DNA from: Escherichia coli
GTDB taxonomy: Bacteria; Pseudomonadota; Gammaproteobacteria; Enterobacterales; Enterobacteriaceae
Reading direction: 5' to 3' (one strand)
DNA: 64,000 bases
Assembly: GCF_965641715.1 (NCBI RefSeq)
Contig: NZ_OZ282453.1
Shown: positions 30,597 to 30,990 of the stretch, in pieces
Numbering within the stretch: the stretch's first letter is position 1
Layout of the letters: each line of letters begins with the position of its first letter
Made by a program: the position numbers and the translations under genes
The notes under the pieces: model-generated
Told to the model about the DNA's origin: nothing
Seen by the model: the letters and a program-made list of their open reading frames with translations, nothing else
Database searches by the model: none

Positions 30597-30968
30597 TACT
30601 GACCTCCGTCTGGGTATAGACATCATATTGCATAGAATTAACGCGGCGTATGGCGGCTGCCATATTTTCGCTACGTGGGACTAAGCTTAGTGAACTGACG
30701 CGGGCAGACCCGCGTTTGGTAATATCCTGCAACAGCTTCTTAGCGAGAATAGATATCATCTCCAATAATTATCTATAAGCCGCTCTTATGATTAAAAAAA
30801 CGCGATGAGATAAAAATGTGTCATTTTGCGACAAAATTGCGTGCTTGTGAAAGTTGTTATAAATCAAATAAGTGGTTGTGAAATTTGCACTCTGAAAAGG
30901 ACGTCTTATCTTTAAATAAGTGGTAGCGAATCGCTACGGAATAGAGATAACACGAGGAGTGGTTAGAA

Positions 30969-30990
30969 ATGGCTAAAGTTCTGGTGCTTT
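30969..30990 (+). other. displaced native 5' end of wrbA (ATG + 7 codons) forming the left junction (attL) of the inserted element
   Basis: atggctaaagttctggtgcttt (MAKVLVL) as the native WrbA N-terminus (from memory), followed by unrelated AT-rich DNA; the 7-bp GTGCTTT at 30984-30990 recurs at 42533-42539 just before the resumption of wrbA. Confidence 0.8.

Follow-up and report, generated by a model that had tools for sequence, protein, structure and literature searches.

The gene wrbA is a recognised insertion locus of Stx2 phages (PMC7175801; PMC2669165) and is listed among the genes disrupted by prophages (Bobay et al., PMC3603311). Here, we describe another occupant of this gene, an 11.5-kb island found in a 64,000-nucleotide stretch of Escherichia coli DNA (contig NZ_OZ282453.1, assembly GCF_965641715.1), which we call the window and whose positions are numbered from its first letter. 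A large serine recombinase placed the island within codon 6 of wrbA. The arm of the island's attachment site (attP) that lies beside the recombinase gene carries a portable wrbA front end, and recombination with the host site yields a complete WrbA of 201 aa. We class the element as a serine-integrase island that regenerates its target gene; the regeneration of 3' ends is already well known. Literature searches found no paper on a serine-recombinase island at wrbA.

The closest occupants of the same site are the Stx2 phages Sp5 and 933W, which share with the island the target gene and its 5' region, and whose integrase gene likewise abuts the displaced body of wrbA. They use a tyrosine integrase, whereas the enzyme described here is a large serine recombinase. 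The Sp5 crossover lies about 30 bp further into wrbA, after ..CATATTGAAAC, and the Sp5 arm supplies MINHILRHVETMAR.., without the first beta-strand and the SMYGH flavin loop; in O157 Sakai, wrbA is a RefSeq pseudogene. Phage 21 and e14 at icd offer a different likeness, in that the element carries the displaced end of the gene and leaves an intact open reading frame (ORF) after integration (PMC3603311). The icd elements duplicate a 3' end and leave the promoter untouched, whereas the wrbA island replaces the 5' end, so that it is the element that has to provide the start codon, the ribosome site and the promoter.

Prophages with large serine recombinases are known as switches, among them the Listeria A118-like phage in comK and, in Bacillus, SPbeta in spsM and skin in sigK. 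These also insert within a host coding sequence, and their precise excision restores the gene. They inactivate the gene until excision, whereas the wrbA island leaves a complete ORF while it is integrated; since that ORF is also annotated as intact in all carriers listed, the island does not fit the pattern of a regulatory switch of the type called 'active lysogeny'. In overall build, the island resembles phage satellites (P4-like elements, PICI, cfPICI and PLE of Vibrio cholerae): it is integrated, about 11 kb long, has its own integrase and an excised circular form and lacks a capsid, terminase and replication set of its own; its blocks identical to the end region of a phage genome may be a further likeness. 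It differs from them in that its tape measure and tube initiator genes are not a described satellite module and its candidate helper is a virulent Felix O1-like myovirus.

Integration junctions and the excised form

The integrated island spans 30984..42532 on the plus strand (11,549 bp, one copy of the core counted) and has about 39% G+C, compared with about 51% in its flanks. Both ends carry the core GTGCTTT, at 30984..30990 in attL and at 42533..42539 in attR. Joining the outer flanks, left of 30990 and right of 42533, gives the empty site of FDAARGOS_1250 base for base. A 1-kb query that begins at 30400 and crosses the left junction matched 5,417 of 5,426 complete E. coli genomes; in nearly all of these, the match ends at query base 591, which corresponds to window position 30990, and the rest of wrbA continues from there. 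Query positions 1-591 are 98-99.7% identical in thousands of genomes. The arrangement is not due to chance, as the same attL and attR junctions recur across complete E. coli genomes (74 and 72 of the 5,426, respectively, about 1.3%).

Large serine recombinases exchange strands at a central dinucleotide. The stretch shared by attL and attR is GTGCTTT in E. coli, CTGGT in Klebsiella michiganensis and GT alone in Erwinia, and because GT is the only sequence common to the junctions of the three genera, we deduce that it is the crossover dinucleotide (30984..30985 in attL, 42533..42534 in attR). An analysis of dyad symmetry in attB and attP did not locate the crossover, the symmetry of the arms being weak (attP 12/24, p about 0.08). 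The att sites are short, and attL and attR are hybrids without a long duplication, as is expected of a large serine recombinase.

The enzyme itself is encoded at 40814..42457 on the minus strand. This island integrase of 547 aa has the Pfam domains Resolvase (PF00239, residues 5-155), Recombinase (PF07508, 194-302) and Zn_ribbon_recom (PF13408, 319-368), and its translation contains the catalytic-serine motif YIRWSTKEQ with S11.

From the two junctions, the attP of the excised island is predicted to read ..GCAAGAATACTA GTGCTTT TACATAGCTAA.. The 30-mer of this site was found exactly in three metagenome contigs and not in IMG/VR. One of the attP contigs (L024, ERZ506742 NODE_633; coverage 14.7 in the contig name) is 11,233 bp long with a 55-bp overlap between its ends, and is therefore a circle of 11,178 bp, an excised relative with 81-90% identity to the island in the window. 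Since excised circles exist, excision does occur and the island family is active; for large serine recombinases, a recombination directionality factor is required in this reaction. Once the island is excised, native wrbA would be back in its exact original arrangement. A second attP contig (L025, OOBX01000469.1) measures 23,009 bp, about two unit lengths, and might be a dimer or a concatemer.

The native 5' region left behind

To the left of the junction, the native start of wrbA is preserved. According to the RefSeq annotation of identical sequence (strain 26561, L001, and a second contig, L002), the minus strand at 30423..30596 holds ymdF, a general stress gene that diverges from native wrbA. 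This gene is followed by the native intergenic region of 372 bp (30597..30968), which contains the native wrbA promoter or promoters and is 98-99.7% identical to empty-site genomes. The Shine-Dalgarno sequence GAGGAG is at 30954..30959 and the ATG at 30969. An alignment of three genera points to two candidate native -10 elements on the plus strand, TATCTT (30907..30912) and TGtTATAAA (30855..30863); the block with the E. coli TATCTT aligns to TATACT 5' of native wrbA in Erwinia. A mapped transcription start for native wrbA was not found in the searchable literature.

The stranded ATG now opens a remnant ORF, MAKVLVLLHS*, at 30969..31001 (ATGGCTAAAGTTCTGGTGCTTTTACATAGCTAA). Its frame, ATG GCT AAA GTT CTG GTG CTT TTA CAT AGC TAA, consists of the native ATG and seven native codons, three island codons and a TAA from the island arm. 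An in-frame stop in the island arm likewise ends the remnants in Klebsiella (MAKILVSLHT*) and Erwinia (MAKILVTLLI*). An earlier note on this DNA had described the native ribosome site and start codon leading into a 10-codon remnant, about 11.5 kb upstream of the functional gene at 42509, with roughly 50 bp between that gene and the recombinase start codon. All of these features are present: the two ATGs lie 11,540 bp apart and the gap is 51 bp (42458..42508), although the native ATG is one base earlier than the position ruler of the displayed sequence suggests.

A CCTGT-N5-ACAGG hairpin is located at 31019..31033, 18 nt past the stop codon of the remnant. Strain 26561 and the circular contig L024 retain the stem, though the loop differs; lacking a T-run, the hairpin is not an obvious terminator.

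A chimeric wrbA with an island-encoded start

What begins at 42509 is a chimeric gene rather than the former wrbA under a different promoter. It spans 42509..43114 on the plus strand (RefSeq WP_000111568.1), and residues 5-201 of its product correspond to native residues 2-198 except for K3R and V4I. The start codon and the first eight codons, MSVKARIL (42509..42532), belong to the island, as does the Shine-Dalgarno sequence AGGAG at 42495..42499; from the core onwards, the sequence is that of the host. The second gene of the operon, yccJ (43135..43362, plus strand), moved along with wrbA.

Differences from the crystallised WrbA are confined to the first residues, the product being 3 aa longer with two substitutions. 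The first beta-strand (KVLVLYYS in the native protein, RILVLYYS in the chimera) and the SMYGH flavin loop are retained, and the island codons mimic the native strand (ARILVL versus AKVLVL). WrbA chains with 33-residue N-terminal extensions have solved structures, and the chimeric product greatly exceeds the WrbA cut-offs of NCBIfam. In all 40 carriers listed, RefSeq gives the product as NAD(P)H:quinone oxidoreductase and the gene as intact.

The same arrangement is found in relatives of the island. The leader is MSVKARIL in E. coli, MSSSELRGKPRIL in Klebsiella, MTDEVRGKARIL in Enterobacter, MQDEERVKARIL in the Erwinia type and MQDEQRAKTRIL in the read-assembly contig L012. These leaders come in three lengths (8, 12 and 13 codons), all of them in frame, preceded by a Shine-Dalgarno sequence and running into VLYYSMYGH, and all end in (K/R)(A/P/T)RIL ahead of the crossover. 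The element arm thus supplies the displaced gene end in frame in the window, and it does likewise in seven lineages. That three leader lengths are kept in frame argues that translation of WrbA from the island ATG is selected, although constraint on the KARIL codons could instead stem from a role as half-site for recombinase binding. The in-frame conservation of the cassette in four genera suggests that the insertion is built to keep wrbA working.

A candidate promoter in the 51-bp gap

The -10 element recognised by sigma-S has the consensus KCTAYRCTTAA, with a C at -13. Between the recombinase gene and the chimeric wrbA, the gap contains a motif of this type, CTATGCTT, at 42467..42474 on the plus strand (hexamer TATGCT at 42468..42473, C at -13, followed by TA). 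The E. coli gap sequence ACTATGCTTAT matches 9 of the 11 consensus positions, as does GCTACGCTTTC in five other lineages, where TG is present at -15/-14. At the aligned position, GTGCTACGCTTTCC is found in five of the six other lineages, and the motif GCTAYGCTT occurs in six of seven. The hexamer lies 33-35 nt from the wrbA ATG in all six lineages that carry it (35 nt in E. coli), whereas the interval between hexamer and recombinase ATG in E. coli is 5 nt off that of the other lineages.

Across both strands of the window, CTAYRCTT was observed three times against 6.4 expected, one of the three being the gap match on the correct strand; the chance of a match in a given single-strand stretch of 44 positions is about 0.002. 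Another match, CTACACTT at 46368..46375, lies 59 nt before cbpA (46434..47354) and served as an internal control for the motif search, as the dominant sigma-38-dependent promoter P2 of cbpA was placed in that region by Chintakayala et al. (PMC3547828). We also compared five E. coli variants, the most divergent carriers among them. No column varies in the 97 nt that lead from the recombinase start through gap and leader to the core, while the adjoining 244 nt of recombinase coding sequence have 17 (7%); at the neighbouring rate, the probability of finding none in 97 nt is about 0.001. Native wrbA is reported to depend on RpoS and Crl and to be activated by CsgD (PMC8229589; PMC6469107). With moderate confidence, the motif and its conservation suggest that island and native promoters of wrbA belong to one sigma class. 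A possible homology of the native and island upstream regions through the shared 8-mer TAAGTGGT was discarded, as the 8-mer lies at different distances from the two ATGs and occurs at about chance level.

We consider it probable that the portable front end includes a promoter and that integration amounts to a promoter swap. Integration cuts the body of wrbA off from its first codons and ATG and from the native ribosome site and promoter. The sigma-S-type -10 of the island arm, 35 nt before the ATG, would then drive the chimeric gene with a leader of about 27 nt and take over wrbA-yccJ, while the native RpoS-dependent promoter would read into the left arm and cargo of the island. Dependence on sigma-S would be kept and growth-phase control roughly preserved; native upstream control, for example by CsgD sites, would be lost. 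The earlier note had held that wrbA must be transcribed from element-internal sequence or by read-through. The island origin stands, but the note had missed that the island brings a new front end for the gene, with Shine-Dalgarno sequence, ATG, eight codons and candidate promoter. Its proposal that the regulation of wrbA was rewired is plausible in view of the lost inputs, but the change may be modest, given the candidate -10 element conserved in the gap.

Several points weigh against this reading. When 40600..42620 was scanned with a simple sigma-70 consensus, there was no hit near the gap; the scan is uninformative for promoters of sigma-S type, because it missed the native wrbA promoter too. 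The Klebsiella lineage is without the -10 motif, and the lineages are related, so that a conserved motif does not amount to seven independent observations. The gap promoter is put forward from a motif match and a phylogenetic footprint, and the conservation of gap and leader could reflect binding of the recombinase at attP, or the 5' leader or promoter of the recombinase gene. Finally, selection to keep wrbA need not be strong, as the gene is dispensable and Stx phages leave a pseudogene.

Other explanations of wrbA expression

The conserved GCTAYGCTT block might serve the recombinase gene, as 5' leader, operator or promoter, or attP rather than wrbA. Seen from the opposite strand, the block precedes the recombinase ATG by 3-9 nt, and the conservation of the gap is silent on which strand is read. 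We find this unlikely, as it is the spacing to the wrbA ATG that stays constant (33-35 nt) and the spacing to the recombinase ATG that changes in E. coli. With some 60 nt between it and the crossover, the block also falls beyond the bounds of a normal attP, and its match to the sigma-S consensus, C at -13 included, is on the wrbA strand. If the gap motif were no promoter at all, wrbA could be transcribed mainly by read-through from the plus-strand operons of the island, which have promoters at 34223 and 36212. Such transcripts would pass through the genes for the tape measure and the tube initiator and then cross the recombinase gene in antisense. In favour of this, every cargo gene has the direction of wrbA, the two upstream promoters are near the sigma-70 consensus and a single weak terminator-like hairpin (41516) is predicted between 40794 and 42509. 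Such transcription would have to run for 1.7 kb against the recombinase gene, however, and would depend on cargo that is expected to be silent in the absence of phage if the island is phage-dependent. Moreover, in the Enterobacter-type relatives the main cargo operon faces away from wrbA, yet the ATG, the Shine-Dalgarno sequence and the -10-like motif are kept. We therefore regard read-through as an unlikely main source of wrbA transcripts.

It is also conceivable that the chimeric gene is poorly expressed or silent, the insertion being in effect a knock-down whose intact ORF reflects recent acquisition and constraints on attP. The gene does tolerate disruption, as the Sp5 pseudogene in O157 Sakai and its place in the list of prophage-disrupted genes (PMC3603311) show, and the KARIL codons overlap the expected recombinase-binding half-site. 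This explanation strikes us as quite improbable: the ATG and Shine-Dalgarno sequence are 24-39 nt from the crossover, at or past the edge of a typical minimal attP, the frame is kept at three leader lengths across four genera and the substituted residues are conservative for a first beta-strand. A promoter swap is, in our view, the likely outcome of integration, judging from the sequence features of the gap.

Fate of the native promoter

The earlier note had concluded that the native promoter drives only the remnant. The remnant does exist, but the promoter points into co-directional cargo, all of the island's cargo genes being on the strand that it reads, without a predicted terminator for about 2.3 kb. 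No plus-strand terminator is predicted from the left junction to 32700; the first convincing hairpin with a T-run comes at about 33306..33338, after the methyltransferase gene, and another is found at 36474. In relatives, an 88-aa cargo gene (Klebsiella) and a DUF4145 gene (Erwinia) start about 60-100 nt past the crossover, in the orientation of the native promoter. It is thus more likely that the native promoter has been captured by the island than that it has been orphaned. Given the terminators and a recombinase gene that runs the opposite way, a transcript that continues from it through all 11.5 kb into wrbA is unlikely. In the excised circle, the candidate cassette promoter sits in the position of the native promoter and leads into a mini-ORF of 13 codons.

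In the relatives, the cargo gene nearest attL faces the same way as the stranded wrbA promoter, and its identity varies between lineages: the 88-aa ORF in Klebsiella, a DUF4145 gene in Erwinia and an AbiJ or DUF4145 gene in the Enterobacter-type islands. Adjacency to attL was verified for the Klebsiella (L004, 14316..14663) and Erwinia (L009, 14980..15750) genes only, the others being genes at the far ends of contigs L007, L011 and L012.

Implications for wrbA as a marker site

Occupancy by Stx phages is monitored with wrbA as a marker site, and an occupied gene usually counts as 'disrupted'. The occupant described here preserves wrbA and is present in about 1.3% of complete E. coli genomes, which occupancy screens by polymerase chain reaction or BLAST will misread. 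The island is a natural example of a serine-integrase attP that carries a ribosome site, an N-terminus and a candidate promoter as one cassette. Such a cassette would let an element occupy the 5' end of a host gene at little cost, which is relevant to the evolution of integration sites and to the design of landing pads for serine integrases. A real promoter swap would mean that a mobile island is fed by a promoter of the general stress response and that wrbA-yccJ is left without its native upstream control; if the native promoter is captured, expression of the island might report host stress or stationary phase.

Relatives of the recombinase

The E. coli recombinase cluster has 2,970 member sequences, and the nearest recombinases outside it are 61-65% identical. 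Every one of these that we examined is divergent beside wrbA-yccJ, with a gap of 40-44 bp and a WrbA product of 205-206 aa; they come from Klebsiella michiganensis, Enterobacter hormaechei, Erwinia sp. and three metagenome or read-assembly contigs. A scan of genome contigs with a single recombinase gave no matches, and no close recombinase was found in deposited phages (best 28.7%, YbcK-like). A more distant recombinase with 35% identity (contigs L013 and L014) lies inside yecE (DUF72) and splits it into pieces of 165 and 121 aa, which are not restored. As this relative merely splits its target, gene restoration is a property of the wrbA-targeting clade. The gene yecE is another classical Stx-phage site, and the yecE fragment that retains the promoter is immediately followed by a DUF4145 gene.

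In one sequence with the same recombinase (100% identity; IMGVR_UViG_2529293078_000008), wrbA is doubly occupied. The island cassette is followed by 21 codons and then by a lambdoid-prophage junction, CATATTGAAAC|CATGAAGCAT, which truncates wrbA. The serine- and tyrosine-recombinase sites, about 30 bp apart, can therefore be used together.

Island cargo and links to Felix O1-like phages

Two genes at the right end of the cargo are mosaics of genes from virulent Felix O1-like phages and have counterparts in one of these, Bas63. The tape measure protein (37735..39864, plus strand; 709 aa) matches Bas63 gp17 over its N-terminal 46 aa and in its C-terminal LLSSSYPEEE, with a middle part that is about 30% identical. 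The next gene (40000..40794, plus strand) is a homologue of Bas63 gp18, the tail tube initiator (PMC12609058), with residues 13-190 about 97% identical and a diverged C-terminus; its DNA is 91-94% identical to many Felixounavirus genomes. The island also contains two non-coding minus-strand blocks with 100% identity to internal parts of the direct terminal repeat (628 bp) of Felixounavirus NBEco004. The first is 25 bp long (31750..31774; repeat positions 27-51), and its surroundings, 31750..31906, are about 69% similar across the boundary between unique sequence and repeat. The second is 51 bp long (33470..33520; repeat positions 311-361) and has unrelated flanks. In a comparison with this phage, neither block was present in three other island variants; other variants do keep the tail-gene similarity.

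The left arm (31002..32596, plus strand), directly downstream of the native wrbA promoter, has ORFs of at most 58 aa and is dense in TCTGTGAAG-like repeats. It is followed by a Dam-type N6-adenine methyltransferase fused to a C-terminal helix-turn-helix (32597..33265, plus strand). On the plus strand, a consensus match points to a near-consensus sigma-70 promoter at 34223..34251 (TTGACA-17-TAGTAT, TG-extended), before the gene cluster 34300..36121, and a second such match is found at 36212..36240, before 36708.

No capsid, terminase, replicase, primase, capsid-remodelling or small-terminase gene was recognised in the island with PHROGs, NCBIfam, Pfam and PADLOC; a replication module of its own, as expected of a phage satellite, was thus not found, and it is speculation that the repeat-rich non-coding arms could be an origin. 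PADLOC reported no defence system in the island apart from the orphan methyltransferase, Rfam gave no match across it and Pfam none for its 185-aa and 236-aa proteins. The 71-aa and 236-aa proteins were considered as tape-measure chaperones of the Felix O1 type and are not detectably so. When the AbiJ, DUF4145, resolvase and HTH_36 genes of the relatives were compared with the E. coli island by tblastn, the tape measure protein alone was matched, at 23% identity, which indicates that the relatives have the integration module in common and not the cargo.

This pattern suggests a satellite, or an island that interferes with tails or packaging, tuned to virulent Felix O1-like phages. Literature searches found no described satellite of such phages. 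As a tentative extension, which we regard as possible but doubtful, the island may be a satellite or parasite of Felix O1-like phages, with tape measure and tube-initiator genes compatible with the helper and copies of its terminal-repeat sequence, and may have chosen its site for a reciprocal promoter swap, in which the captured RpoS-dependent promoter drives the cargo while a look-alike cassette keeps wrbA working. The DUF4145 genes of the relatives, of abortive-infection type and presumably AbiJ, stand at the position that the captured promoter would feed. Felix O1-like phages are used in the typing and biocontrol of Salmonella and E. coli, and the cargo points to a possible satellite of these phages.

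Several repeats were seen in the non-coding parts of the island. The window contains 33 TCTGTGAAG-like 9-mers (at most one mismatch) against 11.7 expected, and 26 of them are within the island. They cluster in both orientations in the ORF-free arms 31093..32469 and 33442..33797, and could be iterons or regulator sites. Two adjacent non-coding direct repeats of 83 nt (33575..33657 and 33669..33751), 90% identical, each open with the TCTGTGAAG motif. Degenerate copies of TAG(T/A)TGATTCGG..CCTCATA are present at 31330..31367, 31938..31956, 33480..33508 and 34099..34153; the copy near 33480 falls within the 51-bp block shared with the phage, and the last one is a short way upstream of the strong promoter at 34223.

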